Shown here one piece after another: positions 6,327 to 52,700 of a DNA stretch of 64,000 nucleotides. A program made the translations under genes and the position numbers. Source of the DNA: Psammoneis japonica (taxonomy: Eukaryota); the NCBI GenBank assembly GCA_008632985.1, contig QPGO01000078.1, positions 1 to 64,000 of the forward strand, in the 5' to 3' direction. Every line of letters begins with the position of its first letter. The first letter of the stretch is position 1. Under the pieces are notes generated by a model. That model was not told where the DNA came from. It was given only the letters and a program-made list of their open reading frames with translations, and searched no databases.

Positions 6327-7157
6327 ATGGCATCAACCGAACAGCCCTTGGAGGAGCGCTTACAGCACCTTCAACGTCTTAATGCAGATCGCTGGAATAC
6401 CTTGAAGGAATTGAATCGAGAATGGAATCGTCTAAACAGCTCGTTAGAACAGGAACCTGCCGTTTCTCGTTTCGAAAAGCGAGAGGCTGCGCTGCAGGCC
6501 GAGCAGGACGTCTTACGAGCAGACGGCACCCATGCAAACGAGGCACATACAAAAACGCAACATGAGTTGGAATCTGAGTTTGATGCGGAATTGATTGAGT
6601 GCTACGACAGTCTAAAAGAAACAAACGCGGTGTTGGATCTGGAATTGGAAATGAAATCACGAAAGCTAATCGAGATGAACGGGTTCCTAGAAGAACAAAA
6701 GAACGTGCAAGAGGCACTCGAGATTATGGTAAAGAAAAAGCCAAACGAAGAGGTGGATGAGGAGGAGGAGGATTCTTCGTCTCGGCTAGAACTCTTGCAG
6801 AATGAAAACAAAAGACTCCGGAGTGATTTACAGTATGTCTGCCGTTTTTGGGAAAGAGAAAAAGAGCGGGAACGACAAGAACTGCAAGACATGGACGAAA
6901 GTGACGATGATATGATTGTGGAACTGCACCCCAGACGTCACAAAAAGGGGGCGGACCATGGAGGCGGGTTCTGGAAGCTAGATCAACTGGTGCTCGAACT
7001 GACCAAGAGATTCATGCAATCTCCCACCGACCCTTACATTTCGGTAGACGGGTTTCCCATTGATCCAAGACACGTAGATCTCCTTCGGCAATGTCATGTA
7101 ATTGAGGAGACTGAAGATTATGGGACTAGAATATGTCTGACGGACTATACTCGGTGA
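6327..7157 (+). CDS. CENPK: CENP-K-like (Mcm22/Sim4) kinetochore protein
   Basis: Long coiled coil, then C-terminal LDQLVLELTKRFMQSPTDPYISVD...PRHVDLLRQCHVIEETEDYGTRICLTDY, resembling the CENP-K head (...P.DPYV....P..V.LL....I........RI.L..F). Length is 276 aa. Confidence 0.65.
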   Translation: MASTEQPLEERLQHLQRLNADRWNTLKELNREWNRLNSSLEQEPAVSRFEKREAALQAEQDVLRADGTHANEAHTKTQHELESEFDAELIECYDSLKETNAVLDLELEMKSRKLIEMNGFLEEQKNVQEALEIMVKKKPNEEVDEEEEDSSSRLELLQNENKRLRSDLQYVCRFWEREKERERQELQDMDESDDDMIVELHPRRHKKGADHGGGFWKLDQLVLELTKRFMQSPTDPYISVDGFPIDPRHVDLLRQCHVIEETEDYGTRICLTDYTR

Positions 7158-7425
7158 CAAAAAGATCGGCGCCACAACAGCAGCGTTGAAAAAGTTCATT
7201 TGAATAGCTACTATTCAAATCAAACACATTTCAATATTTTGTTTCCTCTCTCCTCTCACTTTGAACAGTCCGCCATACGTGTCTTTCGATACCCTACATA
7301 ATATTGAGTAGTCGAAGTGTAACGTCTTCCGTTTGATAGTCGACAGTCGGACAAGAACAACACCGTTCAATGTTGCAAACGAAAGATTGCAGTAGTCAAT
7401 CACTCTCTCTCTCTCCAAGCCAGCC

Positions 7426-7878
7426 TCACTCTTTTGCTTTAGGTTTTGCATGCTTTGATTCTTGAACATATTTTCCCACAAAGTGCGCAAAAACGGGATG
7501 CAGTGGAATCTCAATCCACATCCATCTCGGAACGGGTATTTGTACATTGTTAAGGACAGCACCTATCAAGGTGAAAAGACCAATCAAATGCGACAAAATA
7601 ATGGGACGGGTTCCAATCACTGCCGCAACATAGCCACCAATTATGGATTGCCCAAAGTGTGCACAAAATACCGCAAAAAATGCTGGCAAGGGTAAGTTTG
7701 CAATGTAGTCGCCAAACGCCTCGGTGTCGTCAAACGAAACGCCATCGGGCAGCGGATACAGGTAGTTTACATTGAGCATAACGATGCTCATGTTGATGAC
7801 AGAGCCAAGAACGAGGCCGACAATGAGACCTGCAATGTTGCGGCGGACAGCATGAGTGGTGTCGTGGGTCGGCGTCAT
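7426..7878 (-). CDS. Four-TM hypothetical membrane protein of bacterial-like family
   Basis: Intronless 150-aa ORF with RNIAGLIVGLVLGSVINM...YPLPDGV...AHFGQSIIGGYVAA...P.W, a pattern recalled from small bacterial membrane proteins. Confidence 0.7.
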   Translation of the reverse strand: MTPTHDTTHAVRRNIAGLIVGLVLGSVINMSIVMLNVNYLYPLPDGVSFDDTEAFGDYIANLPLPAFFAVFCAHFGQSIIGGYVAAVIGTRPIILSHLIGLFTLIGAVLNNVQIPVPRWMWIEIPLHPVFAHFVGKYVQESKHAKPKAKE

Positions 7879-8003
7879 GTCAACAACAATGACCAAAGCA
7901 AGATCGATCCAAACAACGCCATAGCGAAGTGCTGGGTACGCATCGAGTAACTTCTGGATAACGTCGACTGACGCACCGCGCTGTGGCGCATGCGCAGTGG
8001 ATT

Positions 8004-8069
8004 TCATCGTGGGACCCCACAAATACGGAGGGACACGTAACCCGGAAATGTAGCAATTTTGATTTTTTG
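8004..8069 (+). repeat. Left TIR (TpA retained)
   Basis: tcatcgtgggaccccacaaatacggagggacacgtaacccggaaatgtagcaattttgattttttg. Confidence 0.92.
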
Positions 8070-8161
8070 CTCATGACGCGTGAGACAACAAAATAAACAA
8101 AGATGCCGTTGCGTTTGACACTCTCATTCTAGCCGCTGAAACACTCCTTCCGCAGTATATC

Positions 8162-9433
8162 ATGGCACCGACGTCTCTCAAGCGTAGTACGAACAGTCAA
8201 AAGGCAGAGGCTCCAAAACGACGCCGTTCTGCTTCCAACGAGCCTGCTGACAGTTCGCACGCCGATGCTGTTGCTCAGGCAGGCACGCGACTTGGGAAGG
8301 AGCTTGCCGATGCCAACCAGGCGGAAACCATGGTTCAACTGAGACGTAGTAGCCGTGCGCGAAGAATGACTGATGCTGGGGCTCAATGCCAAATGGCAAA
8401 CAGGCAGAGACGGGAGCGGAATCGACAAACGCATGATGAGGAGAATGTGACTGCCGAACAACCCCCCCGCGAGTCGGAAGAAGAAGGGGCAGTCGAGCCT
8501 CCACCCACAGCGGAAGGAGAGATAGACGATGAAGTGGAGGTGGAAGAGGAAGAAGGTGCTCCTCCAGCTGAGGAGGAAGAAGCGACTTCACCAGCAGCAT
8601 CTGCGGAAGAGGAAGGAAAGGAAGAAGAAGGTGCTCCTCCAGCTGAGGAGGAAGAAGCGACGTCAGCAGCAGCTTCTGCAGAAGAGGAAGGAAAGGAAGA
8701 AGAAGGCGCCGCAACACGCAATCCCTTTGAGCATCCCGAAGACTGTGCACCTAGAAATGAATCAAACATTGGTCGGCATGATGCGCAGGAGCTCAAAAGG
8801 AAGAAGAAAGGCACGAACAACATGACTGGAGCCAAGAAAAGATGAAACCTGACGGATCTTCCACGAAGTGCACGAGCTTCCTTCGACCACAACATGAGAA
8901 CGAAATTTGGCCGTATGACAAAGAATGCACGCGGTGTGCTTAAGTGCTGTGCACTCGATCCTGAAAGTGAGTTGTTCGAAATCAGCCCAAAAGTCAGGGT
9001 GACTCTTGCGATCGAGACTGATGTGAAGCATTTCAAATCAAACAAAGAAGCAGAAAGTGGTTGTCTCACAGAATGAGAAAAAGTGGACAAACTCAAAAGG
9101 GAGAGGCCGTTGCTAATTCTCGTATCCAACAGCAGGGAGGATGTGAGGAGCACCTTCACTGCAGTTGAGTCACACCCAAATGAAGCCAAGCAGTTGCACA
9201 AGGAAAAGAAAGAGGCCGGTGGGACAGCTCGGTTTTCTGACTTGCAGACTGCTGAAGTGCATGAGCTGCATGGCATGGGCAATGAAGATGAGGCAGAGGA
9301 ATTCATGAAAATGACAGTGGATCCGGGGAAAGAGGGTGAATGGACTGGATCCAACACTGGTCCTCGTCAAGCACTTGAAAAGCTGATGAGGCGACGGCAA
9401 TCAAACCCAGTGCAGCATTGCAACAATGCATGA
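8162..9433 (+). pseudogene. Accessory ORF of the TIR element (acidic, low-complexity N-terminus), interrupted by TGA stops
   Basis: ORFs 8162-8845, 8894-9076 and 9083-9433 share one frame and are separated only by TGA codons. Confidence 0.55.
8549..8710 (+). repeat. 75-bp coding tandem repeat (about 2.2 copies; EEGAPPAEEEEATSxAASAEEEGKE)
   Basis: Units start at 8549, 8624 and 8699. Confidence 0.9.
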
Positions 9434-9479
9434 GTCGCAACAATGTATGATGTGAATGTGCCTCTCTAATTGTTCTAGT

Positions 9480-12400
9480 CTAAGATGGTTGTGTGGATCG
9501 CTTCTTTCTTCGTGGGCTGGAGAGGCTGACGATGGAAGAATCGATGCTACCCAGAGTTGAGGCTGACACTTGACCAAGCACTTGGTCCTGCAACTGAGAC
9601 AAGTTCTCGTGCTGTGAGGCGGCAAAGTTGCGGGAACAATCCACAGTGCACTGCTGTCGGCCTCCAGACCTTGACTCTGTTGTCCCATGACAGAACGGCA
9701 TCCTCGTCTGCTTTTTCAGACGAGCCACATCAACCCCGTCCGATGCATGTTCCTTGTCAAACAATTCTTCCTTTCTCTTTTTTCGAGCATCGTAAAAACC
9801 AGGAACCTTGTTGAGATGCTCTCGACCCTTTGTCACCATGGTGAGATGCCAGTCTCGAGCAGCAGCAGTTTCCATGCCCTCAATGGCTACGTCTGCGGGG
9901 AAGGCCCGTTCGAATTTCTGCTTCTGTCGCCGTCCAGGATTCATTTGTTTTATCCTGTCTCTTGACACCTTGCATTCTGCCGAGAGAATTTTTTTAGTGT
10001 GCGCACCTTTTATTTTCTTCATCTCTTTCTTGCTGTCCGACATGTGCTTTTTGACAAAATTGTCACGAGCATCTTCAAGCTCTTCGAGGGTCGCTCGAGG
10101 TGGCTTTGGAAGTGCCTTTTGATTGACGGGGTTGGGGTTGCTCTTGTTGAAGGGATCAGCTTTGTGACAATCAAGGGCAGCCATTTCTCCCAGTTCAGCG
10201 AGGAAGCAGTTCATGGGATCAACTCGGTGCTTCCCTTTTGGCGTCCACATCGCCTGAGGTTCCTCCTTTCCAAGAATTTCCGGTGGGCTATCATGGCGCA
10301 CTCCTAGGCAGTTCACATCCCACAACTGACAGACCATGGTGCAAAACGTACGACCAAGATTTAGAGGCCTGTCACTCTTCGGAATGGAACTCAACAAGTG
10401 TCGCTTCGAGAGACGCCCTGGTTCTTCCTTCAGATTCGTGTTGCGGTTCACATTTCTTGTGGCAATGATTTTTTTCACATTCATCTGCATTCTGATGATA
10501 GAAAGTAACTTCTCAAAGTTAGATGTACATTGTAGCAGCATGGTGCATCAACTTTGTTGACGCACCTGTCAATGCACTCCTCTTTCAGTTTCGAGTTTCC
10601 CAAGTCTTGCGTGCCGCATCCGATTGAGGTGTCCTTCTGTTGGAATTCTTGGTGTCGATCGGCGCACACAACAGCTCCTTGTTCTGTCTTCTTGAACACC
10701 GCAAACTTCTTGAACATGGCTTTGTCTTTTTCAGACATGGTGCACTCTCGCTTTGCGTCTTCCTCGGCGATCCTCATGTGTCCAGTGGCATTTGCAATCG
10801 AAAAAATGTTGGCGGCAACAAACATGTCTCCGTCTCCATTGCCATCCCCTGCATCAGATTCAGCAACTTGGTGCATGATGCACATGAGGGCAGTGTTGAC
10901 ATCACACTCGTTTGTCGACTCTTCCGGGCATGCCGCCATTCACTTCCGGACGCAATCTTGGAGCTCAACAGGAGAGAACTGGATTTTGCCGTCCCTGTCT
11001 AGCTTTGACCCATTCACCCTCATCCATGCCATGACACCAACACAAACATGGGCGTTGAAACACTCAAACAGCTCGTCGTCGTGTTGGTTTGGGTTTGGAG
11101 GATCGCACAGCCACATGACCTTTTTCAAAGTCGGGCGCCATGCCAATGCCAAGTCCTGAAGTCGGATCTTTCCGATGTTCCTCATGCCTCTCCTTTCGGC
11201 GGACTTTTTACCTCAATGGAAACCTCCACAACAAACCAGAAGCATGTCACACACACCGGGGTTTTCAGTCTGCATGGACAACATTTGTGCTCCTGGCTGT
11301 CCATCCACACAGAAACACAAGTGTCCCCCTGCCATTGATGGTGCGTCGGGATTGCCATCCTTCAAAGCACACCAATCCTCGCCTGCGGTGTTCATCCAGT
11401 GTCATGCAGCACATTTTGCTCTCTCTTCCACTCCTTCCTTTTTTTTTGCTGGATTCTCTGGGATGCACGTGTCGGGGAAGGCATTGTTCAAATCGCACTT
11501 GTCCTCACCCTGGACATGAAGGATCCTCGTGCGCAGCTGAGGGGCATTGCAATCAATGAGACGATGCGTGCCACATTCTCCATGACCTAAATTCACATCA
11601 TCAACAACGCATCGTTTCCCTGTCTCAATGATGGTCTTCATTGCCGGAAAGTCCCCAAACAAGTCCATGAAGTTTCGAACCAATTTACCTTTCAGATTGT
11701 GCATGATCGTGCAGCGAGAATCTTGGGGCAAGAGATCTTCCGGTGTGAGTGTCCGTCTTGTTGTTTCCCATCTGTTTTGTTCATGAGAAAGTCCGGCCGT
11801 AAGCTCCTTTGCTTCTTCCTCCTTGTTCACTGTCACCTGCTGGGTTGTGAAATGGTGCATGGCAGTGCACCCGTCTGTGACAAGCCTTTTGTCAAGATTG
11901 TCCAAACTGATCCCCAACTGATCACCTTTCTGAATGTCGAGTTGGCGCACAAATTCATCATCTGCCTCAGCAATGTCCTTGCATCGAACGGAACTTCTTG
12001 AGAGGGAGAGACCCCAATTGTGGAAGCAAAAACTCTTGGTGCTTGACGATGACTTGGAAAGGACCTCTGCTGAAGTCCTTTGGAAAGGCGTTGGTTCATT
12101 GCTCGCAACATTTCTGATGAGCTCTGCGCAGACGAATGCCTTGTTGCGAATTCTCTTTGTCACATCTGTCACTTTTCCACAGTCTTGCTCTCTTGAGCCT
12201 GTCATCAGGTGCTCCATAAAAAGATTCAAGAGGCTCTTGTCATTGTTGGCAAACCCTTGTAGCTCATCTATAGAGCCGTTCCAATGGAGAGCCGGATCTC
12301 GGCATTCCGCTTCAGGCTGCACCAAGAAAGCATGAAGTGCCAAAGCAAGTGAACAAAAATCGGTCTTCACATCTGCAGAGAAACATCCCAACTCAGCTGC

Positions 12401-12877
12401 CCGCAAATTTGCAAAAAACGACCATCCGCGTGCACCAGTGGCAACTCCATCCCCCCCTGTCGCAACTGCAAAAACCACTTCGTTCTTTTGTTCACGCGAA
12501 GGAAGACACAAGAAATCATCAAGAGCTTCAAAGCCATCAATGTCAAAATGTGAGCATGAAGACTCTTGCTGTGTGACTCTAGTGCCAGACTCTCTGCTTC
12601 GTGGCGTAACTGCTCTTGACCCATCGGATTCTCTGGGAGCATTTTCTCGAGCTAGCGTGTCTCGGCAAGCAACGCACTTGTGGCAGTCAGCACGGCTGTC
12701 ACAGCTGGGACAAATGGGCCCTTCACAAAGTCGCTGTGCATGCATTTCTCCAAAGCAGTGCGGGTACAAATGGCACCCACACGGACGCATGGTGAAGCAC
12801 GTCTTGCTCTTCAGTGCTTCTTGACACGCCGTATTTCCACAGCTTTCTGGGGAGGCAGCCTTCCTTTTTGATGACAT
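9480..12877 (-). pseudogene. Large transposase-like protein with N-terminal RING-like finger (DUF6589-like DNxD...DG.P...GGFH...D..QE), fragmented
   Basis: CGCHLYPHC...CPSC, LGISLDNLD, CVDGQP, VCCGGFH and ADRHQEFQQKD occur in order across ORF fragments. Superfamily is uncertain. Confidence 0.55.
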
Positions 12878-13018
12878 GACAATCTTCCACAGTGCCAAAC
12901 AGTCTTCTTGTGGAGTGTGACAAGTGATTGGAGCAGAGGATTGAGCTGCACAACGACTGTGCACTCTCCATCGGACGCAACAGTGTTTGTGGTCATGCAT
13001 CTTTCATCGAGAAAAAAT

Positions 13019-13084
13019 CAAAAAATCAAAATTGCTGCATTTCCAGGTTGCGTGTCCCTCCGCATTTGTGGGGTCCCACTGTGA
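13019..13084 (-). repeat. Right TIR (TpA-mutated)
   Basis: Reverse complement is tcacagtgggaccccacaaatgcggagggacacgcaacctggaaatgcagcaattttgattttttg, 60/66 identical to the left TIR. Confidence 0.92.
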
Positions 13085-14673
13085 GATTGGTGGGTAGACT
13101 GCGTGCCGGTGACCCTTGCCACCTTTCGAGCGGTGAGCATCTTTGTTTTGGTCCAATGCAGCCTGAACCCCTGAAAAAGGGGTGGACAATTTCGGACCGC
13201 CTCGTGCAACACAAGGTTGCTCTTGGTGGCAGTTGTGAGGTTCTTTGGGCACGGGGACAATCCTGCATCAGGGAATGGTCGGACAAATTCATGGAACCCA
13301 CCCCACTGTCTCTTCTCAATGGCCACAAAGAGAGCAATGTCAATCATTGAATCGAGCTGCAGTGAAGAGTTGTCACTGTTGTCAATGACTGTGACAGGCA
13401 ATGAGGACAATCCCTCCTGGATGTCATCACATGCATCAAATGCACCGTGTTCTTCAGCTGCAGGGTCTTCTTCTCAACAATGACACCGGATTGCACCCCT
13501 CCCATCTGACACTTCAGATCCAATTGTCCAATCTTGAAGATGTGTTCCTGTCCTTTCAACCACCCCTGAGCAAGTTTCTTCCCTGCCTTTGTCTGGCTCA
13601 ATGCCTCATGTTTGCTGTTGAGGCATGCCTTGCACTGGGGGTTGTCTTCTGCAGCGCTGGCATTGCTGCGCCGTCTGCCACTGGCTTCTCTGGCAATGAC
13701 CCAACTTCGTCTGGGAGCACTCGGCAATTTGACAGTTGCTGATGGGGTTTGAGTTGCCAGGAGTTGGTGTGGTCATTTGCACAATGCTGTCTGGCAGACC
13801 ATGGTCTGGCTGCTGCATTGTTGATCACAGTTCTCTTGCTTTGATCAACAGCAAAAACATGATGGATTGCTGGTCTCCTTCATTTGTGCTGTGCTGTGCA
13901 GTGCAGAAAGAAAACTGCATCCACTGAAATGAATGACCAAGCCATGGCCCATTGACATTTTGGTCCCCGGCAACAGAGTTGGTGATGGTCATGAGAAGGC
14001 ATCTTTGTCGCCCAAACTTGACTTTGTGCGACACTGACTGTGTGGTGTCAATGTCAGCCCAGGTGGACCAAGACTCAAGAGTGGTCAGTCGCTGCTTTTT
14101 TTGCTCAAATTTGGTGGAACAGCTCTTGATTTGTATGATTTTTCCTGAATTTCACAGTCCTTCACAATGGTGAAAACAACAAGCCACAAAGTCTGTGATG
14201 GAGGTGGTCTGATCACAAACTCTTGTTTGTTTGTGTTCCTTTTGCATCAAAGATTACACACACATCAAAAGTTTGCAGATGCCCCACTGCATTTTCAAGA
14301 AAGATCAATGATTGCATCATCATCATGCTTTGATTGTGGTGCACAATGTTCTCATTTCCTTGTGCAATCCGGTGTGAATGCAAGCAATTTTTGCACTCAA
14401 AAATGAACACTGCAAATGATCTCATTCAAATGCCATGACAATTTTAGGATGAATGCGGCAATGACCCCCTTGATGGTTTTTACATGGGGCCAGGGTCAAC
14501 TTGGAATTAAGGTGGTGCAGGTGCAAAGGTGGGCCAGATTCTGCGTGTGCAGAACTTAGCACATTTTCTACACAAATTGCCAAAGTCACCTTGCCAACTT
14601 GAGCCCTTTCCCAGACGATGGAAACTTGAACATTTCACACAACGAAGTGTCCAGGCTGCTCAGTTTCACTCCC

Positions 14674-14843
14674 CTCAACTTGTTCATTGAGAGAAACTGC
14701 AAGTTTTCATGCATTTTTGAAGATGTGCACTGAGTCCACTGGCAATCAGAAAGGCACCAAAATTGGGAAGTTCAAGTTTCATGGAGCTGTGGCAAATGAT
14801 GAATGCCTGAAAACTTGCAGTTTCTCTCAACAAACAAGTCAAG
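14674..14843. mobile_element. 170-bp MITE-like element with 42-bp inverted arms
   Basis: 14674-14715 and the reverse complement of 14802-14843 differ only by two CA/TG swaps and one transversion. Confidence 0.7.
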
Positions 14844-14859
14844 CCATCAACATGTGGAG

Positions 14860-15830
14860 GTCTCTTTTTGCACAAGCTTGCATTTTTTTAAAACTGGATG
14901 CTTTGCACAAAATGCACGCACTCGTTGCCAAAATAAAAATTTCAGTGACAGGCCCAACTTCCAACTTTGTCCATTCACAACAAGACACCACAGAGTGCAC
15001 AGACAATGGTCATGACCATGCATGATCTTGGACTTGTTGAGTGTGGACATGTCCACAGCCAGTCAAACACCAATTGTTGGCATTTCCTCCTGGAAAGTTG
15101 TGGCTCACCTCCCACAAGCAGTGTGATTTTGGAGAAAAACAGTGGCACTTTGAACCTGACAACTGCACCAAATCCAACAACTGGCATTTGAAGGTTGAGA
15201 AGTGCAGTTCACACACAGGTCTGACAGCCCTGATGGGGGCTGGACAAACTTGCAACAAGTGTTTTGGGGTTCTCAGAGGTGTCTCCGCAAAATGACAAGG
15301 GCAGTGCACGAGAAAATTCAAAATCACAAGCTTTTTGAGAAAACATCTCTGCACATCAATCCTGCCTTGAGGATGGATTGTTCATTTGCGGTTGATTTTT
15401 TATTTGGAGCTTGCACTTTTCCACAAAAACCCGGATTCCTTGCACCAATTGCACGCGTTCACCAAAACAACATTTCAGCAACAGGTCAAACTTTGTCTGT
15501 TTGCAAGACAACACAGAATGCACATGTGATGGTTGCGACCATGCATGATGTGCAGCTTGGCAACTGGGTGTGCAGACATGTCCACAGCTGGTCAAATGCC
15601 AGTTGCTCCTGGCATTTCATGGAAAGTTGTGGCTTGTCCACCACAAGCAGCCAGCCCGATTTTGGCAGAAAATGGTGGTTTGTCACGCACAACAACCAAG
15701 GCAAATGCAACAATTGGCATTTGAAGGTTGACATGGTGTGCAGTTCACACAGAGGTCTGACAGCCCTGATGGGGGCTGGACACACTCATGTGTTTGGGGG
15801 TGCTCAGAGGCGTCACAAAATGATGGTTCT
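14860..15830 (+). repeat. Diverged tandem duplication, unit about 530 bp
   Basis: Shared blocks in both halves, e.g. gaccatgcatgat, gacatgtccacagc, ggaaagttgtggct, ggcatttgaaggttga and ggtctgacagccctgatgggggctggaca. Confidence 0.8.
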
Positions 15831-16177
15831 GTTTTTGCCTTGGACTTAACTGCAGACACCGCATGGCTTGCATTTGTGAACACACAACAAAAGAGTGAGT
15901 GCAACGATCTGTCAATGCACCAGTTTTCTGAACACAATCCACCATGCTTCTGTTCTTTTCATGTTTTACACTGTTGATCACAATGCTGTTCACTGGATTG
16001 ACTGGTGTTGTCATTGTTTGACAAAAGCTGTCATAAAAATGGGGCGCAAATGCTTCAAGGCAAATGCATGAGAGGGGGCATGGGAATTGCCAATGCACCA
16101 TTTTCATTCATGCATTTAGCGTGCACATGTGATGAAGCATCATTTGTGCTTTTTCCCCAGGAACTCACGCTTCCCGT

Positions 16178-16464
16178 GGAACAACATGGCAAAAGGTGGC
16201 AATCCCGGGGAATTTTGGGGATTCCCACGGTGAAACCAAACTGAGCATTAAAAAAAACAGTGCATGACAATGACCCATCCTTCAATTGCTTTCTGCTCTG
16301 AACTTGCAGCTGCACATTGTGGAGCAACATGGCAAAAGGTGGCAATCCTGGGGAATTTTGGGGATTCCCATGGTGAAACCAAACTTGGCTTTAAAAAAAA
16401 ACAGTGCGTGACAATGATCCATCCTTCAATTGCTTTCTGCTCTAAACTTGCAGCTGCACATTGT
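16178..16464 (+). repeat. 143-bp tandem duplication (2 copies)
   Basis: Copies start at 16178 and 16321. Differences include three CG versus TG/CA and one TA versus TG. Confidence 0.9.
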
Positions 16465-16844
16465 CAGTGTGCTTTCATTGACCACTCAGTGGTCTGGTTG
16501 GATGGAAGCTTTGTGCATTTGTCCCATCTGTCCTGTTCATCTCCTGAAGATGTGCAGATGGTCACCTGAAGACAGACGCACTGTTGCACCTGCGTGTCTT
16601 GATTTGTCACACATGCCGGTGGATCACATGGCAATGCTGGCAGCTTCGGCCATTGCGTGGTCAATGATGTGCACACGGGTTGATCTTTTTTCAAGAGTTT
16701 TTGCCCACACCATCTAAACCAGTGCAGCAAGAGGCACTGACTGTGACAACATGGAACACAACTGTCTGGGTTTCTTCTGGCCACTTCAACACTTGAGCCA
16801 GGCATCCTGATCCTGCCTGCATTGCTGTCCCTTTGCTCTGCCAA

Positions 16845-18100
16845 ATGTCAAACTTCAACACCCCAGATGAAGAGAAACAGCAACACCAACATGAGCCTTT
16901 GGATTTGTCTGCATTGCTGACAGCTTTGGAAGCTGGAGATGAAGATGTGATTTCTGTTTGGCAACAACTGGTTGAATTTTTGACTCTTGGAATGGTGCAC
17001 AAGCCAGTCCTTCTGGCAGGAATGTTGGCTTTCTCTGTGGAATTGACAAGAGTCACTTCCAGATCATCACATTGCAAAATGATGGACCTGCTGGACAGTG
17101 AGTGGATGACATTTTCGGAAGCCAACTTTTCCATGGTGTCACAAAATTGGGAGGCTTTCATTGGCCAGAGAATGGCTCTTGATGCCAATGTTGCAACTTT
17201 CTTCAACACAACCAGACAAGAAGCCCTTGACTTGTCCACAAGCATTTCCAAAAGCCCAAATTGAATGCTGGTAATGGCTTGACACCTGTGCAATTGTGCT
17301 TGTTTGACAAGATGGCAAACTTTGCAGACAAGGTGCATTCATGTCCCAAAAATGGTGAAATTAAAAATGCTGTGCTTGGATTTACTGGCGTGCAGCTGCT
17401 GCTGTGCTTGGCATGCCATCTGAGACTCAACAAGACAGGCTTGCTTTCTGCAAAGCAGTCTGTGGGAGTGTCAGAGAAGGAAATTCATCCGCAACACCGG
17501 CCTCTGGGACAAATTGGCCCCCTTCAATTTGCTGTCATTTTTGAGAAAGAGGAGTGGTTTGACAAGAAACCTGGTGTTGTTGTGTTGCCAGTGATGGAGG
17601 CTGATCAAGCCTGGAACTGGAATGGTGGCCATGCAAGATTGTCATCATGTGTGAGGATGTTGCCAGAAAAGCCAGCGCTTGAGCCATTGCAAGCAGGATT
17701 GGTCTAACGTTGATGAGCCGAACCCAATTCAAGATGCAAGTGCTGGCAACATCAGAAAATCAGCCTCACTTTTGTGCCACGTAACCAAAGCATCAGCCTT
17801 TTTCTTGGAACACAAAAACAGGCCTGATGGTGGAGGGGGTGCTGTGCTTTGGAGAAAGTTCCATGTTGAACTTGAAATGACTTGACTCACCTCAGCTGTG
17901 GTGATGCATCTCCTCCCAGAGGACAACCTTTGAGGCAGGATCTTGGTGGTGATCCCCAGAGCAGAGTGTCCAGAAGGAAAGATTGTGGTGATCAAGGTGA
18001 AGACATCATTGCAGTGCACCCAGACCCGTTGCTGCTTGCTTCCAAGTCATCTGTTGACTGGACTTGATGCTTCCATTTCCCGATGATGGCAGAAGCCAAG
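16845..18100 (+). pseudogene. Degenerate copy of a diatom hypothetical multigene-family protein
   Basis: WFDKKPGVVVLPVM...WNGG and HPDPLLLASKSSVDW resemble a recalled diatom family. Frameshifted and mutated. Confidence 0.3.
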
Positions 18101-18888
18101 CCATCTGAAATTCCAGCAACAGGAGACTGCCTTGATGACACAATTTTCCTTCCAATGAAGCATCCAAAGCATCAGTTTTCTTGAGCTTGTGTTGGATTGA
18201 ATCCATTGCATGGCAATGCCTCTTGCCACCACTGCAGAAACTGTTCAGTTGCAGCAGCTGATTGTTTCTGCTCTCACGGCTGCTGCCATTGTCCCTTGCA
18301 TGCAGGTGCTCCATGTGGACTCAAAAAGGCTGTTTTTGACTGACTCCTTCTCCAATGACTCACTCAAGAAAAAACTCAAATGACGACAAAGGATGGCCTC
18401 TTGTTGTTGATTGCAAGCAATTGGATGATTTTTGTGACAGTTTGATCAGTTGTGAATGCTTGACTGGTCCCCAAGATTGTGCACTTGAAGGTTTTGCAAA
18501 GATTGAAGAGGCACTTGAGAAAACTGCCAGGAACTTTTGTGCTTGAATGTCACCAAAATGCCACACTTTTGTGTGCAATTCATTTGTTTTTGCCTCTCCA
18601 TCTTCCTCCCTTGTGGTTGCACCCATCTGTTCTGATGACTTGGCATCCCACGTTGTGTGGCTGGAGCAGGTTGCAAGCAGATGAGACATTGTGTCATGAA
18701 AAGACAAAATGTCCAACAACATCGATTGTGCCACTGCAGCCCAGCACAGACTTGCTGTCAATGACAATGGTGGAACACAAGAATGTGGGAAAGCATGTGG
18801 CATCAAGAAGAAGATTGAAGTCCAGATGGTCTGTCAATTGCCACAAGACACTTCAGAGAGTGGAAGGCTGAATGCTTGCACACCGATG

Positions 18889-21800
18889 TGTGACATGGTC
18901 TTCAACACATTCATGCATCAACATGCCTCAAGCTGTGAGACACAAACACCCGACAAAAGACCGCCATCAATGAATGGGCCAATCACAGATGACACAACAA
19001 TTTTGAAGTTTGCCAAACAGCTGTTTCTCATTGTCTCCATGAACCAAAAGAGCATCTGCTGTTTGCCTGCAAAGACTTTGAACAATGGCATCAAGAATGG
19101 CTGAATTGTTTCACCAAACTCAGAGGAAACCACTGATTTAAAGATGATCCAGTGTGGGGTGAGATTCTCTCATGCTTTTGATCATTTCAAGAGTTGACTG
19201 GAGATGATGTGAAGGAAATCAATGAGAGCACATGGTTGCATCTGGGCTCAGTGCAGTGGAAACAGACATCCCAAGCAATGAAACCTGCGTTGTTGCCACC
19301 AATCTTGACAGGAATGCTGTCAATGATGGAATTTTCAAGAAGGTGCCAGAAGAAACACATTCAAAATCTCTTGCACAGCCACCTCCTCCAACCCCCACAG
19401 CCACCCATTGGCCATGTGGTCCTGCTCTGAGAGCAAGCAACAACCTCAAATGGGAAAAAAGTGGAACACCAGGTGCAAGCATGTGGATTTTCAAGATCAG
19501 ATGTCCAAGGACATTTTGTCTGCAGCCTGTCCAGATGCTCATGTCAAGCAAGCTGGGGATGAACCAACAGGCATGTGGACTCACTTTTCAAGCTTTCCCA
19601 TGGCCATTGCCCTTTCTGATGATGAGCCTCAATGAGAACATGGAGATGAAGAAAGCCAGTGGCACTGTTGACATTTTTGAGGTTTCTGTGGATGATTCAG
19701 AGTTGATGAGGTCAGGAGTGATGGTCATTGGGTGAGGTCAGCCTGTGTTTTACAAGTTGAGTCCATTGTCTTGAGGCATCTGCTCATGAGAAAAATGCTT
19801 GTTTCATGTGGCTCCAAGGAGAGAAACCGGTGTTGTCAACTTTCCTGTTGCTGTGATGGGTTTTGTTTGCAAGAAAATTCTAAGAATCAGTCAGAGGATG
19901 TGTCACAGATGACCCAGTTCCCAGCTTTTGTGCTGCAAGACAATGGCTGTGCACCACAAGCTCCAGCAGGGGGAGAGCACAACTGTGAGTCTGGTTTTCT
20001 CAACAACTTTGGCTGCAGAGACAACTGGGTTCTTGTGGTTCTGTCTAGAGTGACAACAAGAAAGGGACGTTGTGCATTTGCTCAGTGCAACCTCAGCTGA
20101 TTGACAGCACCCTGAAAGACCTTGGCTTTGTCAACAAAAATGGCTCTCCTTGGAAGGGCATGACCACCAGAGATGCTCCTGCATTGTCTGTGTGTCTCAT
20201 TGGGCCCAATTTTGGCAGCCCAAAATTTGATTGTGATCTCAACTGTCACTTGGTCATGGGCAAAGCAAACTTCCTGGAGAAGTCTGCTTGACCTGAAATT
20301 GCATGCTCAACTCACCAGTTGGCTTGTTTCACCACCAACATGAAGCTGTCACACAGAGCAGCCCTCAAAGACAAAGGACACTGACTCAGGACACAACTGA
20401 CCAAACAGATGGTGAAGGGGGGCACCTCTCTTGAGGTTGTGCAATGCAGCACAGAGGACAACAATTGCAGCAGGCAGACAACAAGATGTGCTAAAGATGC
20501 ACATTGTGAGAAGATTTCGCAGTTGACTGGAGATGACATTTTGACCTGATGGTCATGTGTGTCACTCCAATTGCTGTTGCCAGAAGACTCAGTGGATGTT
20601 TCTTCCAGAAGTGGAGATTGATGACCGGAAGCATCATCCACAAATCAGCCTTGGTGTTTGACTCATGACTCTCCCTCTCAAACAAGAAGAGAAGGAGGAC
20701 AAACAGTCACCAGCTCATGAGGGCTTTACGACCAATTTGGAATGGATCAGCAGCCAATCCTTTGGCAAACTGGTCGGCAAGCCAGGCAGCAGAGCTGACA
20801 GGCTCAATCTTGATCTCTAAAGCTTCAACCTCATGTGAAACCATTGGTGCAAAATGCTGGTGCACTTGGTTCATGGGGACAATTTAGGCACAAAAGCAAA
20901 TTGGAGGCAAGCAGCATTGTCTTCATGTGCAACAGATCATGGCAGGTTGGCAGTGTTGATGGGTGAGGCATTGGCACCATTGTTGGCCTCTGTGGGAATG
21001 CCTTGGAGTGGGCAGTTGCCTCATTGCAAGCACCCGGTTGCACAAAGACATGCGTGTCAATTTCTTTCAAGATCTTGCAAAGGGGGATGAGATCACACAT
21101 TGCTTGGGAAGAGTGCAACACACTTGGCTTCCATTGCAGAAAGTGCTGCCAGGGTCTGCAGCTTGGACACCCAGATGATGGGACATCTCAATGGATGACA
21201 TGACCGGTGCATGACTTGACAGAAGTGGGGGTTTGTCCATCTTCAGTGCTGAAGAGTCCTGCAAAATGAGCATCAACACAACAATCATGCCAATGAACAG
21301 CAGCAGTGGGTGCTGGGATGAGACCCTTGCATGTCAGCAGTGTCCTTCAAGCACCAAAGAATGCACTTGATGGCAACAGCATGGGAGGCCTTGGGAGCAA
21401 AGGTAAACCAAGCAACTTGGTGGGCAGTGCAGGCAATGTCTGGGCAGCTGTTGGATGCCAGACACATCAACATGCCAACCATGGAGTGACAGTCACAAGG
21501 TTCATTGAATGGCAGGCCTTCAGAATTGCTGTCAACAGGTGCAGGAAGTGCAGGAGCAGGAGCTCCATTGCAGTTTTCCATCTTGGCGGTGTGCAGCACT
21601 TTCTCAATTGGGCCAGGTTGGGTTGGCAGGAATTGGCTGTCCTTGAGTTTCTGGATTTTGACACCCAAAAAGTCACCAACTTTGCCTTCATCATGCAGGT
21701 TGAAGACATGGCATTGCTCATCATTGGAGACACCCAATTTGGCAATCTCAGCTTCAAGTTCTTCAGATGATGCTCTGGCAAATGCCTCTCTTGAGGTTGT

Positions 21801-22900
21801 GCAATGCAGCACAGAGGATGACAATCGCAGCAGGCAAACAACAAGATGTGCCAAAGATGCAAATTGTGAGAAGATCTCACAGTTGACCAGAGATGACAAT
21901 TTCACCCAACGGTCATGCATGTCACTCCAGCTGCTGTTGCCAGAAGACTCAATGGACATTTCTTCTGGAAGCAGAGGTCAATGACCAGAAGCATCATCTG
22001 TGAATCAGACTTGCCATTTGACCCATGACTCACTGTGTTCAGGGCCCACCTGACAATGTCAAGAGCTTTGAGTGCTTCATGGATGCTGATTTCTGTCAAG
22101 TGGAGTGGAGCCCCTCTGCACTGGTCATCAAAATTGCAGACCCAGTTGGCCCTCAGCAACAGTGAGAGCAAATGCTGTCTGGCCCTGTTGGCTGCAACTT
22201 GGCACATGAAGGCATCTGTGCACCTGTTGAAAGAGATCAACAAGGTGCATTGTCCAGCAACAATCATGCCAAGCGTCTGCTTCAATTTTTTTGAAAAAAC
22301 TTGGCTGCACTCAAAATTGCAAAGGTGCCAAAGATGAGGCCAAGAACATGTCATGTCAACAACATCTGCCACCATTTTCACTCTGAGGATGCCAGCGGAC
22401 ATTTGCCAATCAAGGTCATTGGCATCAAGCTCCAGCACACTGACTTCTTGACCAAAATGCCAGACCCATCAATGTTTGTGCACCAACTTGACCTTTCACA
22501 TGAGGAAGTGTGACATTGTCTGTGCACTCAAGCATCAACATGCCTCAAGCATGAAAACCCAACAAAAAACCACCATCAACAAATGACGAGCCAATCACAG
22601 ATCACACAACAATGACAAGAATGAGGCATCTGGTTCAAATCAAGAATGGAGCATGCTTCCATTCTTCTTTTGTGCAATCAAGAACTTCTTGTTGTTGACA
22701 AGCCTTTGCACTGTGTTCATCTGCATTGGCTTTGGCACAAATGCAAGGCACTTCTTGTTTTCATGCTCTTCTGGTTGAATGTTGGCTGGCACAGTTCTGA
22801 TTCTCACAATTTAGAAATTGAAGAATCTGATCACTGCTTGGTTGCCTTTGCTGTTTTATGGCTCCATGGTGCAAACTGCCACAAACCCTGAACCAAGCAT
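18889..22900 (+). mobile_element. Ty1/copia LTR retrotransposon remnant A (RT + RNase H), internally deleted
   Basis: LTR-like direct repeats start at 18889 and 22509 (tgtgacat...gcatcaacatgcctcaagc...gccaatcacagat). A purine tract gaggaag precedes 22509. RT: QPQLIDS.LKDLG...GKANFLEKS..PEIA. RH: DADF, GAPLHWSSKLQTQLALS, PKMRPRT.H, DFLTK. Right end is approximate. Confidence 0.8.
20398..22032 (-). mobile_element. Ty1/copia remnant B nested in reverse orientation inside A
   Basis: ~250-bp direct repeats (about 20424-20672 and 21783-22032) flank RT (DEGKVGDFLGVKI...MVGMLMCLASNSCPDIA..AHQVA.F) and the RH end. A purine tract gagaggg abuts the downstream LTR. Confidence 0.8.
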
Positions 22901-22919
22901 TTGACTGCCCATGCTGCCC

Positions 22920-23335
22920 ATGATGTGTCATCCCAAACCACACATGACCAAGTCTTCCACATGTGCAGTGCATGTGAACATGCATTGCAAACAAATTCTG
23001 CAATGGAGTGCTCCATGTGTTGCAAGCTAACTCCACAACAGACTTCTCTGCAACTGTTCCATGCCAGCATCCCAAATTGTGCATGACCAAGTCTTCTGCA
23101 TGCACAGAGTGTGTGGAGATGCACTGCAAACTGATTCTGCAATGGCCCACTCCATGTGCATTGCAGCCAATTCTGCAACAGACCACTCTGCAACAGGCTG
23201 AGATGGAATTGAAACTTCCAGGTGCAGGTGCAGAGTCATTCTGTGCTGACATCCCAAATGATGCATGACCAAGTCTTTCACATGTGCAGATCATGTGGAC
23301 AGCATGTGTTGCAAGCCAACTCTGCAATGAGCTGC
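22920..23335 (+). repeat. Degenerate tandem repeat (three catgaccaagtctt-anchored units)
   Basis: Motif at about 22944, 23082 and 23264, each followed by similar ttgca...ctgcaatg sequence. Confidence 0.7.
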
Positions 23336-24226
23336 TGCCACCTCCAAGTGTCCATGGCTGTCATGCTTGTTGACCAAAGTCTTCTCCAACTTGTCAGTGC
23401 ATTCATTCACCAGCACAGCTGCTGCATTTGTGTGGGGAGCAACCTTCTTTCCCCTTGGCTTTGCAACAGCACCCAGCAAGTCCTTCTTGCAGAGAGCTCC
23501 TGCTGTTTTGGAGGCAGCGGTGGCTTCTGAGGCAGTGCCAAAATGTGATCAGGTGCAGGGACCGGCAGTGTTGTCAGCTTGGTGTGCGGCGTGCATTGGA
23601 GCTTTGGCCCTTTCTCTGGATGGGTCCCACTCTGGAGACACTGTTGACGAATCTTGTGACAAAATCTCATCATGACAACTTGGAGCCCTTCCCAGAGGGG
23701 TGTGAGAGCATGACAAGCTGCTGCCAGCTCTCATTCAACTGAGCTTGTTTGATGTTGCACTGTTTTTATTTTTGCTTTTTTGTGCATTGCAGTGAGCAGA
23801 GCAACTGCAGAAAAAAATCAAAGTTTACATGGGGCACCTGTGTGCAAGGGACAATGTGTTTTTCATGCATGAGCTGGGGACAAAAGGCAAAAGGGAGAAA
23901 GGCAGGAAAACGCACAAAAAAGGTGCACACCATGCTTCTGAAGCCTGATGGAAGCACATGACATGGGCAGGAGGAGGGGAAAATGGGAAAAGAAAGTTTT
24001 TGTTTTTCACACAACTGCCACACCAGCAGAGGCCTGTGCAGAGTTTCTGCTGGATCAACGTTTGTGATGATTGGTGATTGGTGCCATGCAGTGGTGTGAG
24101 GCTGAATGTGGGCCGGCACTTTCAACACCGGAATGGCATTGAATCACATTGTTGTGATTCACAAACAAGAAGAAGCCAACTCTGCCAGCAACAAAAAGGA
24201 ACACAGTTGGATGAACAACATCAAAC

Positions 24227-26900
24227 ATGCCCAAGACTCCTCCTTCCAAGAAGTCTGCTGCTCACTCTGAGAACTGCCCTCCTTCTGGTGGAAGTGGGGT
24301 CACATCATCACCTCAACCTGCAGACCCAACTGCCGTCATGGACAAACATCAGAGTTGCCACAGAGATGAGGAAAGAGATGGTCCCAAGAAAGATTTGGAG
24401 GAGATGTTCACTGATTTGGAGGAGATGGCCACCAAGATGGTTGCCAAGGAAGATTTGACAAAGAAACAAGATGGGCCAAAAGAGTGGGAGCTCTTTGTTG
24501 AAGACAAGGTGTGCTCTCCATGGTGAGGCACAAATTTGGCAACAATTTCAGCAAAAGGTGATTGCTTTGCCATCAAGTCCATCCATGATGCAATCAAGCT
24601 ATCTCCAAACAAGCTGACCACAGCAAAGTCCCCGACAATGGTTCAAAGCTGGATGACCGTGTTTGTGTGGTGAATGTCATGGCCAACATTTTGGAACCTT
24701 TGGTTGATTCTTCAGCAAAATTGGCAGTCACGGCTGTCTGGAAACAATTGCAAGATGATTTTTTTGGTGATGTCACATTCAAGGACAAAAAGAAGAAAAT
24801 TTACAATGCAAAACATGCATTGAGAATCAGGGGTCACTGCAAGTTGAGCTTTGGCAGCACTGTTTGGGTGGTCAAAAAACTCAGCAACACATCAACGGTC
24901 CAGGGTCAAGAAGAAGACAAGGCTGCCAGAAAGAAGATGACAGAAGGCCAGTTCAAAAGAAAGCTTGAAGGATCCAGTGGGTGCTCCTCAACAACAAGGA
25001 CAATGTGCTGACACAATGTGAGGGACTGGGAATTTTGTTCTGCACTGTGCTGTTTCCACTGTCCCTGAGGATTGCAAAGGCAACAAAGATGCCATCAAAT
25101 TGTGGATTGAAAACAAGTGTGACATTTTCAATTTCAAGAAAGAAGTGGAGTGTGACCTTCAGCCAAGGGTTGAGCTGATCCATCCATGTGCAACTGTCCA
25201 TTGTGGTGAAATCAAGTTAAAGATCAAACACTGCAACAAGGCCAAGCTGCAGATGGCAGAACAAGCTCAGCTGAATGAGTTTGCCCTCAACACCTCTTTT
25301 TGGGAATGAACCATTCGTGAGCATCATCAAGAAAGGACATCTCTTTGTTTTGGAAGCTGCCCATGGTGATCAGCAAACAACTCCACAGGTCAACAGCAGC
25401 ACTTGTGTGTTTGCACACAAAGTCAACTGATTTTTCGTTTGTGAAGGATGGCATGGAGCAAGGTGCAGCAAGCAGGGTCTGCAGCATTGATGTCAATGAA
25501 AAAAGGATGCATGGCAATCAGTGCATGTTGTCAGTCAAATGTCATCTCCAGTTGCAACTGAAAGTCTTGGAGACTGCCACAGCAATTAGATTCTTGTTTG
25601 CTGGATCAACAAGCCAAAACATGACAGACAAGATGGCCCTGAGATAAGGGTCAAGAGTGCACAGAATGTGTGAACAATCTCATGTGTCACTTCATCACAT
25701 CTCAGACCTGGTCCATGGCATTGCAAACTGCATTTGGAAGAAAGTTGCCAGGAAGCCTGTGAATGGTTCAGTTGATTTCTTGGCAAGGATTGGAGTCAAA
25801 GGTGGAGCAGCACCCATTCCTGTCTGTGCCAAGAAGCCAAGTTGCTTGTGCTTTTTGACATCCTTGGCAGACAACTGCCCTTGCTCTTCTTTGGTGATTC
25901 CAAAGGAGATGATGCAGGAGAACCTTGCTTCTTTGAAGCAGAGTCTTCATCAGAGGACAATTGGCAAGCTGAAACAGGACACAACAATCCCCAAATGGAC
26001 CTGGCTTGCCACATGTGGTCGGCAAGTTGGAGACACATTGGCGCTCACCAAGCATTCCAACCTGGAGAGCACATGAGAGCTGACCTCCTGAACAGCACAG
26101 ATGGCTTTGCAATGCTGGGCAACACTGCCCAACTCAAAAAATGTCCCAGTGACAGTTTGGACATTGTTGGGCACACCAGCGGCAATCTCACAAGTGTTGC
26201 CACAGCTCTGGATCCACTTGTGTCTAGAGACACCAAAGGCTGCATGACAATGATGCAAAATCAACTGCCAGAGCACAGCATTGTCAACATTGTCAGCAAG
26301 AACACTGGGTGCAAGGCAAAAGTTGCCAATGGCAACAACCACATTGTTGCAATCACGTGCTTGACCCTCAGTGTGCAGCAGCCTTGGAGAGTTGTCAGAC
26401 ACATTGACTGAGAAGTGCTGAACAAGGTTGCAATCTTTTTCAACAATCATGTTCCAAACTCTGCACCACATCCACAATGGGGCAAGGAAGCTCAAATTGT
26501 TGGTGGTCTTTGACAAGAAAGAATCAGTGGATGCAATTGGTGGTCAGTCATCAAAGGAGAAGCCATGAGTGCAAACCAGGGGTGCCTTGTTGACCACACT
26601 TTGGGGGACAAAGATTGATGACTTGATCAAAAATGGACATCAAAGCACAGACATTGAGGGCAGCAAGATGATCTAAGATGGACCAAGAGTTGCCTGAACC
26701 TGACTTGACTGCTGCTCCAATCAACCAACAAAAACTGAGTTGAAAGTGGCCACAGTCATTGCCACATGAGCGCCAGCTGCTTGCAACAGAAGGCAAGGGA
26801 ATGACACAGTGCCAGGCATCCTTGACTTGCCTCTTCACATCCCTTTTCTTCCAGGTTTCAAGGGAAGCAAAGTTGCCAGCAAAAGGTTGATGAGGGTTGC
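24227..26900 (+). pseudogene. Unassigned degenerate TE ORF (gag/ORF1-like)
   Basis: Chain of + strand, protein-like, Tyr-poor ORF fragments starting MPKTPPSKK. No diagnostic motif recognised. Confidence 0.3.
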
Positions 26901-27329
26901 CTCTGACTTGGCAGCCATTTCAGAGGAGAACAGCAGGCAGGAGTGGCCATTGCCAGAAGGTTGGTGGTGCCAAGAACCCACCATGTGACCAGAGAATGTC
27001 CTCTTGGTGCTCAGTCATGATGCTCACCCCACTTTCACCTGTCACCTATCACATGTGACAAGCCCAGTTCTCATTGTCCCTCAGCAGCTTGCCAATGATT
27101 GCAGTGAACTCAAGTTCACCAGTGGCTTTTCTTGAGTGATTTGGGGTGCAGTGGTCTTTTGCATGCATTGGTTGTTGTCCAGGCAGTGTTTGGATTAGGA
27201 ACATGTGGGATTCTCTCCATGAAAGGCTCACAATCTTTGAAGCAGTGAAAGATTGTCTGTTTTGTTCTTTGACATGATTTTGTTGCTGGCTGCATTGCTG
27301 TTCACTTGCTTTGTCAGAGCTGTGAACAC

Positions 27330-28080
27330 AATGAGGATTGGTGTTGTCTCTGTGACCCCTGTGCATTGTTGTTCAAGCATGGCACAACCTTGGCATTTCT
27401 GCACTCTGTCAAATTTGCATTCCAGGGTGTGTGAAAGAGAGTGTCAGGGCCAACTGTCAACAACAAAAACTGAGTCTAAACAGAACACTCACCTGCATTG
27501 GCAGTGAGGGTTTGACATGAGAATCCCTGCCAGCAAATGGCACCACAACCTTGACACATCTTGCACTTTGTCAAATTCATGTTTGGGGTGCACAAAGAGG
27601 GTGCAGAGCCAGCTGACAACAGAAAAACTGAAACTCAATGAGAACACTCACCTGCATTGGTGGCTGCAGGAATCCTCAACAGCAAATGTGATGTGCTGTT
27701 GTTCAAGCACAACACAACCTTGCTGTGTCCTGCACTCCATTAAATTTGTGTTCCAGGGTGCATGGAAGAGTGTGTCAGAGCCAGCCAACAACAAAAAAAC
27801 TGAAACTCAAAGAGAATGCTCACCTGCATTGGTGGGAACAATGCGAGAATCCACAGTGGCCCAGCAAATGATGTGATGTTGTTCATGCATGACACAACCT
27901 TGACATGCCCTGCACTCTTTCAGATTTAAACTCTGGGGTGTGCAAAAGAGAGTGTCAGAGCTGACCAACAACACAAAAGCTGAAAGCCAGTGACAATGCT
28001 CACTTGCATCAGTGGTGAGAACAATGCCAGAATCCCTGCCAGCAAATGGCACATTGTCACTCAAGCATGACACAACCTTG
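27330..28080 (+). repeat. Minisatellite of ~165-180-bp units (about 4.5 copies), resuming at 30107-30350
   Basis: Recurrent cacaaccttg...gtcaaatt...gtgtcagagc...aaaactga...ctcacctgcattgg. Confidence 0.85.
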
Positions 28081-28199
28081 ATGCACCGTGCATGCCACCC
28101 AATGCCACTTCAACCACTCTGCCAATTTCTGCAGCCAGCATCATCTGACTCTGCCAATGAATGATCTTCATCAAGACAATCCTTCCTCACATGCCCAAC

Positions 28200-46959: not shown

Positions 46960-52700
<5,741 letters not shown>

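Follow-up and report, generated by a model that had tools for sequence, protein, structure and literature searches.

The 64,000-nt stretch of DNA analysed here (positions 1 to 64,000 of contig QPGO01000078.1, hereafter the window) carries at 8004-13084 a decayed, multi-copy cut-and-paste DNA transposon of about 5 kb, which is bounded by terminal inverted repeats (TIRs) and is inserted into a host reading frame, within its 5' part. The TIR pair is the sole long inverted repeat within the window, and a 4-bp target-site duplication stands directly outside the two termini (Table 1). When 8004-13084 and one GATT were excised in silico, the flanking minus-strand frames fused to one open frame of 320 codons, and the element is therefore placed within a host frame. 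The target-site duplication and the restorable empty site, both judged from this single insertion, are found together with the TIRs and with copies that have common termini, as in class II TIR transposons. The 26-nt inner end of the TIR occurs twice in the window (0 expected), and no further TIR copies were found elsewhere in it. Similarity between the arms was not detected past 66 nt (local score of 29 versus 24.5 +/- 4.6 for shuffles). Scans of metagenome contigs and viral contigs with the TIR pattern gave 0 matches, no relatives were found among viral contigs, Rfam gave 0 families in the 64 kb, and Pfam matched none of five element and flank frames, including those at 8084-8845 and 7426-8003.

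Table 1. Features of the element and its surroundings (window coordinates; Rho is the dinucleotide frequency relative to expectation).
Feature	Position	Strand	Remarks
Downstream part of interrupted host frame	7426..8003	-	Membrane-protein-like; Tyr 7/192 residues; positive codon-usage score
Target-site duplication GATT, left copy	8000..8003		Directly outside left terminus
Left TIR, 66 nt	8004..8069	+	TA kept at 8024-25, 8038-39 and 8051-52; CG at 8042-43
Left 348 nt of element	8004..8351		Near-genic TA density; 11 TA
Open frame, putative	8084..8845	+	Acidic 75-nt tandem duplication (family D13); coding status uncertain
TA-poor body and right end of element	8352..13084		TA 0.8 per 100 nt; 1-kb Rho TA 0.06-0.17, Rho CG 0.58-0.74
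Putative transposase gene, 713 codons, single frame	10736..12874	-	N-terminal Cys cluster; homologue of orphan protein P0001 residues 11-751
In-frame TGA	10940..10942	-	Faces Gln in P0001
In-frame TGA	11213..11215	-	Faces Arg in P0001
In-frame TGA	11402..11404	-	Faces Arg in P0001; other copies read CGA
17-kb depleted run	13001..30000		Rho TA 0.00-0.11, Rho CG 0.02-0.33, Rho CA+TG 1.72-1.99; abuts right end of element
Right TIR, 66 nt	13019..13084	-	TG/CA at all three TA sites, TG at CG site
Target-site duplication GATT, right copy	13085..13088		Directly outside right terminus
Upstream part of interrupted host frame or leader	13089..13473	-	Scores as coding by codon usage; lies in TA/CG-depleted DNA already

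Other copies were surveyed by aligning the contigs of two public sequencing runs from one sample (X1 and X2) to positions 7000-14000 at an identity of at least 80%. A total of 242 X1 contigs matched, 91 of them at an identity of at least 99%, 57 at 95-99%, 60 at 90-95% and 34 below 90%. The left flank had a depth of 43-67 and the right flank one of 63-97, compared with 71-345 within the element itself, and the mean word depth of the bin containing the left terminus (7936-8169) was 978, compared with 345 for the bin of the right arm. Far more abundant sequences have the first 30-48 nt of the terminus (8004-8051) in common with the element and then diverge, with loose alignment ends behind 8034 and 8051, and these look like a family of the miniature inverted-repeat transposable element type or a sister family with the same end. 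The high-copy relatives of the terminal 48 nt align to the left arm, and one contig with a depth of 219 has two mismatches to 8004-8051. One X1 contig of 827 nt links 7926 to 13099, leaving out the element plus about 90 nt of flank, and may represent an allele without the insertion, with a joint that lies about 80 nt and 15 nt off the termini.

The left TIR and the reverse complement of the right TIR match at 60 of 66 positions. Two of the six differences are located in the outer 5 nt (left/right, T/C at 8007 and C/A at 8008) and four in the inner 61 nt, namely A/G at 8025 (TAC versus TGC), T/C at 8038 (GTAA versus GCAA), C/T at 8043 (CCCGG versus CCTGG) and T/C at 8051 (TGTAG versus TGCAG). 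All four inner differences are transitions, three of them TA versus TG or CA and one CG versus TG. The inner left arm contains three TA, three CG, four CA and four TG dinucleotides and the inner right arm zero, two, six and six, respectively. An earlier sequence-only reading of this locus had reported these four inner differences and no other, with three of three TpA sites converted, and an exact comparison of the arms agrees on both points. The same reading had counted one changed CpG out of four; one did change, but the inner left arm has three CpGs, so the fraction is one in three, and a further CpG, which spans 8008/8009 outside the inner counts, differs too, through a transversion. Its left boundary for the element also holds, since the alignments of other copies end loosely at 8002-8004 (nine in X1 and two in X2). 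In 200,000 trials with four context-free changes in 61 nt, all three TA were erased from the left-arm state in 0.07% of trials, and at least three TA were created from the right-arm state in 1.4-2.0%. The TIR pattern exceeds uniform chance in either direction.

The differences between the arms are set within a mosaic of dinucleotide composition. Relative to expectation (Rho), the whole window has TA at 0.29, CG at 0.63 and CA/TG at 1.44-1.49, and the Rho TA of the element is 0.16. Regions 13001-30000 and 47001-52000 have a Rho TA of 0.00-0.11, a Rho CG of 0.02-0.49 and a Rho CA+TG of 1.72-2.05, and most of their 2-kb bins contain 0-7 TA and 6-22 CG. Gene-bearing stretches, such as 31001-47000, have a Rho TA of 0.36-0.77 and a Rho CG of 0.84-1.14. 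As a share of all dinucleotides, TpA accounts for about 3.3-4.2% in gene-bearing bins versus 0.05-0.35% in depleted bins. Rho TA and Rho CG rise and fall together over the 64 windows of 1 kb (Pearson +0.87). There are islands in which TA is lost and most CG is kept, namely the element (Rho TA 0.06-0.17, Rho CG 0.58-0.74), 1001-3000 and 55001-58000, so that TA appears to be lost sooner than CG. A 2026 preprint by Mettrop et al. on the marine alga Bigelowiella natans gives thresholds for TpA-hypermutated DNA in 1-kb windows (10.64898/2026.01.13.699255). As worded in its main text, these are passed by 25 of the 64 windows, in runs of 17 kb and 5 kb, with 17 of 17 passing in 13001-30000 and five of five in 47001-52000. 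The four full windows inside the element (9001-13000) all pass for Rho TA (0.06-0.17), and one of the four passes for Rho CA+TG (1.42-1.59). None of the 78 frames of at least 100 aa in the depleted zones matched Pfam.

The left edge of the depletion falls inside the element. The left flank has 42 TA and 56 CG in 1 kb, the first 348 nt of the element have 11 TA and 26 CG, the remaining 4733 nt have 39 TA and 192 CG (Fisher p = 4e-4 for TA versus the first 348 nt), and the right flank has one TA and 20 CG in 1 kb. At each of the four inner TIR differences, TA or CG is found in the arm on the normal side and TG or CA in the arm on the depleted side. An artefact of modified-base calling was considered: the contigs of a separate run repeat the TA/CG-free sequence at 13100-14000 with few differences among those shown, a check that is not independent in that the run possibly comes from the same sample as the assembly. 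The unique flanks at 7000-7935 and 13100-14000 differ from the run contigs at about 1.5% of sites (for example, CG>TA at 7672-7673 and CA>TG at 13774-13775), and therefore either the run comes from a different strain or haplotype, or assembly and reads are in conflict at pyrimidine-purine (YpR) steps. Units of about 180 nt at 27400-28100 and 30100-30400 each contain CTCACCTGCA, the complement of a CAG|GTGAG splice donor; they possibly correspond to exon-intron units repeated along a minus-strand gene, which is now situated in TA/CG-free DNA.

The putative transposase gene is homologous to the orphan protein P0001 (758 aa), with a phmmer E of 1.9e-52 and, in tblastn, an E of 7e-105 and 32% identity in one frame. 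Three TGA codons break the gene and two of the three face Arg in P0001. At 11402-11407 two other contigs encode Ala-Val-Arg, like P0001, where the window reads Ala-Ala-TGA. No Pfam match was found at E <= 0.1 for either the element protein or P0001, and a PDB sequence search gave only a weak RING-like match (E = 0.16). The AlphaFold model of P0001, built from a 6-row alignment, was unusable (mean predicted local distance difference test score of 38.4). Protein searches with the element frame, at near and shorter lengths, returned no relatives, and a search with P0001 returned P0001 itself only. Language-model features rank DUF6589 clusters as the nearest named family for both proteins (0.82-0.83), which serves as a lead only. 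DUF6589 is presumably linked to Zisupton/KDZ-type transposases, which the element resembles in this ranking and in the N-terminal Cys cluster of its protein. It differs in having no hidden Markov model match in Pfam at E up to 0.1 and a duplication of 4 bp versus the 8 bp that the Zisupton study gives in its available text (PMC12730594), and the element was not assigned to that group on these two grounds.

The alignment with P0001 provides an outgroup for the direction of change. P0001 has 17 Tyr in the alignment and the element has one; 16 of the P0001 Tyr are aligned, and seven of these face Cys (TAY to TGY), three face His (TAY to CAY) and none faces Tyr. The same alignment contains 43 Cys in the element and 17 in P0001. 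The share of Tyr is 0.1% in the element, 3.6% in the interrupted host frame, 2.0-4.4% in five host frames with Pfam domains and the adjoining unmatched frame (32975-35890), and 0-0.3% in three other TA-poor long frames. Read against the Tyr and Arg residues of P0001, the process in the element is polarised from TA to TG/CA and from CG to TG, though not at the TIR sites themselves.

Older repeats in the window were used to examine the stability of each dinucleotide between copies. Self-comparison gave 28 non-self pairs, from which the TIR pair and 12 pairs of coding tandem repeats were set aside, and eight non-redundant pairs of the remaining 15, with 71-85% identity, were compared. The repeats concerned are located at 14875-15823, 16132-16464, 18885/22505, 20425/21785, 22926-23336, 27383-28092 and 27769/30109. 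In these eight paralogous pairs, which lie in TA-poor DNA, TA was conserved in 0 of 11 cases (the partner being TG in five, CA in four and others in two) and CG in 17% of 23, compared with 55-74% for every other dinucleotide. The commonest difference is the double change of CA versus TG (57 cases), with CA or TG facing TA in nine cases and CG in 16; such swaps are what two unstable intermediates, TA and CG, would be expected to produce. In the control, the genic 96-nt tandem repeats, TA was conserved in 73% of 71 cases and CG in 79% of 136. Genic repeats keep both dinucleotides and TA-poor repeats lose them, and the instability is therefore regional. Among 668 variant places between copies, 83% are transitions. 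In the comparison of the window with the run contigs, which covers the 40 best-supported of 676 variant rows, most of the differences are transitions at YpR steps, including 18 of 19 single differences inside the element. There, among the same 40, the window has CA/TG and all the aligned contigs TA or CG in 13 cases and the reverse in five (binomial p = 0.096).

A process of TpA loss is real in this window, where the TIR differences, the regional TA/CG mosaic, the erasure of Tyr to Cys or His and the CGA-to-TGA stops are all observed. It is probable (about 0.7) that TpA was converted to TpG/CpA with TA as the ancestral state, a direction founded on the outgroup, the gradient along the region and the preprint. 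The sequence-only reading had also taken TA to be ancestral, and the Tyr erasure, the flank gradient and the B. natans preprint lend support to that direction, although the two arms alone give none. Its description of the TIR pair as an internal before/after control went too far, as the arms cannot be polarised and were possibly unlike in the source copy already, and as their CG/TG difference calls for a second process; the pair is an illustration, not a control. Under the favoured explanation, a regional, context-specific hypermutation of foreign or repetitive DNA would convert TpA to TpG or CpA (A to G on either strand), with CpG being lost to TpG/CpA alongside it, at a slower pace. The affected domain would comprise the element from its body to its right end, together with 17 kb to the right, and would end about 350 nt inside the left end, by the host gene. 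Since such a domain covers the right end and stops inside the left end, the right TIR would have lost three TA and one CG that the left TIR kept, and the changes would have fallen in the right arm at the present locus. The enzyme may be a DNA-acting adenosine deaminase, like the one that the preprint proposes for B. natans, and the loss of CpG may result from deamination of 5-methylcytosine.

Several points weigh against this explanation. The two arms cannot be polarised, and the context-free null makes the reverse direction 20-30 times more probable, so the TIR pattern alone would favour it. There is no family consensus for the TIR, none of the best 40 of 676 variant rows falls in 8004-8069, and whether the high-copy contigs are placed on the left or the right arm depends on how the aligner breaks ties. 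Within the element, the excess of 13:5 falls short of significance, and the best 40 of 676 are overall without polarity (the window has TA versus CA in others in five cases, and CA/TG versus TA in others in eight). The argument from Tyr presupposes that P0001 has retained the ancestral state, and the mutation-accumulation data possibly concern a different species. The host frame that is open after excision and the 7926-13099 contig hint at a recent insertion, in which case the arms may already have differed. Finally, a second process is required for the CG/TG difference and for the zones free of CpG, because 230 of the 231 hypermutations in the preprint are A/T to G/C changes at TpA and its main text describes no changes of the CpG type (10.64898/2026.01.13.699255).

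The hint of a recent insertion bears on the main rival, in which TpA was lost elsewhere and the element was mobilised from a source copy with arms that were already unequal, or from a family whose ends are natively unlike. The restored 320-codon frame and the 7926-13099 contig would then reflect a young, perhaps polymorphic insertion, the three stop codons would mean that the element was mobilised in trans, and the other copies do diverge from under 1% to over 10%. The joint of that contig, however, lies about 80 and 15 nt off the termini and falls short of an empty allele, and the TA/CG gradient is continuous from the element into the right flank, as fits action in situ. At the rates given in the preprint (up to 2e-6) a few TpA could also go quickly (10.64898/2026.01.13.699255). 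We regard this history as rather improbable. A reversal of direction, with TG/CA ancestral (TG at the fourth site), would have the left arm gain three TA through C-to-T changes at CpA/TpG, either ordinary or like repeat-induced point mutation (RIP), and one CG through T-to-C. The context-free trials favour it (TA gain in 1.4-2.0% versus loss in 0.07%), as do the 12 CA/TG targets in the right arm versus three TA targets in the left, the equal flux both ways that is expected of a stationary reversible process, and the near balance among the best 40 of 676 differences (CA/TG versus TA in others in eight, the reverse in five). However, TA is depleted here (Rho TA 0.29 for the whole window, 0.16 for the element), which is the opposite of RIP, and the left arm would have had to leave CA/TG at four sites with the rest of the 61 nt unchanged. 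The erasure of Tyr to Cys/His in the same element indicates TA loss, the gradient in the flanks agrees with mutation of the right side, and the sole measured process of this kind, that of the preprint, is a unidirectional loss of TA (10.64898/2026.01.13.699255). A reversed direction is unlikely on this balance. It would also be possible to dispense with any special process and ascribe the TIR pattern to four ordinary transitions that happened to hit YpR steps, or to selection on TIR binding sites, as only four events are involved and 83% of the 668 variant places are transitions in any case. This is strongly disfavoured by the context-free models (p = 0.0007 to 0.02), by the conservation of TA in 0 of 11 and CG in 17% of 23 cases in TA-poor repeats, and by the 25 of 64 windows that pass the thresholds.

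With in-situ conversion of TpA as the preferred reading, a broader and more tentative one may be considered, namely that the erasure of TpA and of CpG are two outputs of one domain-wide silencing and editing system that is aimed by chromatin domain and not by repeat identity. It is raised because the domain edge lies 350 nt inside the transposon end that faces an active host gene, because TA is lost before CG, and because CA passes to TG via TA or CG.

Other long frames in the window are also of note. An 885-codon open frame at 56673-59330 (+) encodes a WRN-like 3'-5' exonuclease domain (PDB 2e6l, E = 7.5e-8) and contains three Tyr (0.3%); the Y-x3-D motif of WRN-type exonucleases reads C-x3-D. 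It looks like another TA-erased gene, possibly mobile or viral. Frames at 633-3014 (-, 793 codons) and 54806-55621 (+, 271 codons) carry an erased-Tyr signature as in the element, with Tyr at 0.3% and 0%, respectively, and Cys plus His at 7-10%, and neither has a Pfam or PDB relative. In the gene-bearing DNA, a chain of very long open frames at 32975-46842 (+) encodes beta-helix, EGF/teneurin, TIG, He_PIG and fn3 domains and includes ten 96-nt tandem repeats at 44738-45901; the chain probably represents a single, intron-poor gene for a giant surface protein.

So far, the removal of TpA from invading DNA at the DNA level has a single report, on two integrated viruses (10.64898/2026.01.13.699255), which was the one relevant paper returned by literature searches on dinucleotide depletion in transposable elements and on TpA hypermutation. 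New here are the signature of TpA loss on a cut-and-paste transposon, a readout at the protein level in which Tyr is erased to Cys or His, a parallel loss of CpG, and a sharp edge inside the element by a host gene. Should a family consensus confirm the process, it could be timed and mapped from paired transposon ends without mutation-accumulation lines, and the edge could reveal how the machinery is aimed. If the erasure of both dinucleotides belongs to one system, pairs of TIRs or long terminal repeats that straddle such edges would be natural calibrated recorders, and the system may exist beyond the one species in which it has been measured.

Several known systems can be compared with the process at this locus. 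RIP in fungi changes C to T at CpA, which raises TpA and lowers CpA/TpG. The likeness lies in a context-specific transition hypermutation of repeated or foreign DNA that leaves compositional islands and nonsense codons. The polarity here is the opposite and another base is struck, with a TpA Rho of 0.00-0.11 and a CpA/TpG Rho of 1.7-2.0; the depletion of TpA and the enrichment of CpA/TpG set this locus apart from fungal RIP. Deamination of 5-methylcytosine, as in vertebrate Alu sequences, would produce the CG to TG/CA changes, the CGA to TGA stops (two of three facing Arg) and the CA-TG pairs that form the commonest difference between old copies (57 cases), but it leaves the TA loss unexplained, which here is stronger and earlier than the CG loss. 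A literature search on DNA methylation in Bigelowiella yielded nothing usable. Retroelement editing by ADAR and APOBEC enzymes likewise involves deaminase-type transitions with a preference for certain neighbours, but these enzymes act on RNA or on reverse-transcription intermediates, whereas the target here is a DNA transposon with its flanking genomic DNA, and DNA itself must therefore be the substrate. The 5-hydroxymethyluracil of dinoflagellates at TpA was considered and dropped, as the spliced-leader motif had 0 matches and the X1 contigs, which amount to 141 Mb at about 50-fold depth, fall well below the size of such genomes; chemical mapping in Breviolum gave no sequence motif for 5-hydroxymethyluracil in the available text of that study (PMC11071213).

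The closest comparison is with B. natans, and the figures that follow are those of the main text of the preprint (10.64898/2026.01.13.699255). Mettrop et al. determined that 231 of the 302 nuclear single-nucleotide mutations in mutation-accumulation lines fell in two integrated viral regions and that 230 of these 231 were A-to-G or T-to-C changes, each of them at a TpA. The rate was about 6e-7 per site per generation and reached up to 2e-6 in one line, and hypermutation was observed in 11 of 15 lines. The B. natans genome of about 95 Mb contains 124 clusters of 1-kb windows in which TpA is depleted and CpA+TpG are enriched, and DDE endonuclease and reverse transcriptase domains are over-represented among low-TpA coding sequences. 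TpA makes up 4.1% of all coding sequences and 0.18% of the low-TpA subgroup. An ADAT2-like adenosine deaminase was proposed as the enzyme, and a preference of ADAR for a 5' U is noted in the Discussion; the main text nowhere uses the word CpG. This window differs in that the target is a TIR transposon with unlike ends and not two integrated viral regions, CpG is lost in parallel (+0.87 across 1-kb windows), depleted DNA takes up 25 of 64 kb versus 124 clusters in about 95 Mb, and the process is read from sequence comparison, whereas de novo mutations were counted in B. natans. Both share a change of TpA to TpG/CpA on either strand, depleted clusters in foreign or unannotated DNA, and similar TpA shares in ordinary coding versus depleted DNA. 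The target in this window is of mobile origin, as its TIRs, its duplication, the many copies with common termini and the orphan transposase-like gene indicate, and the TpA-directed change of A/T to G/C is found here by outgroup only. The element and its surroundings are in these respects a further instance of the TpA-to-TpG/CpA hypermutation known from B. natans.

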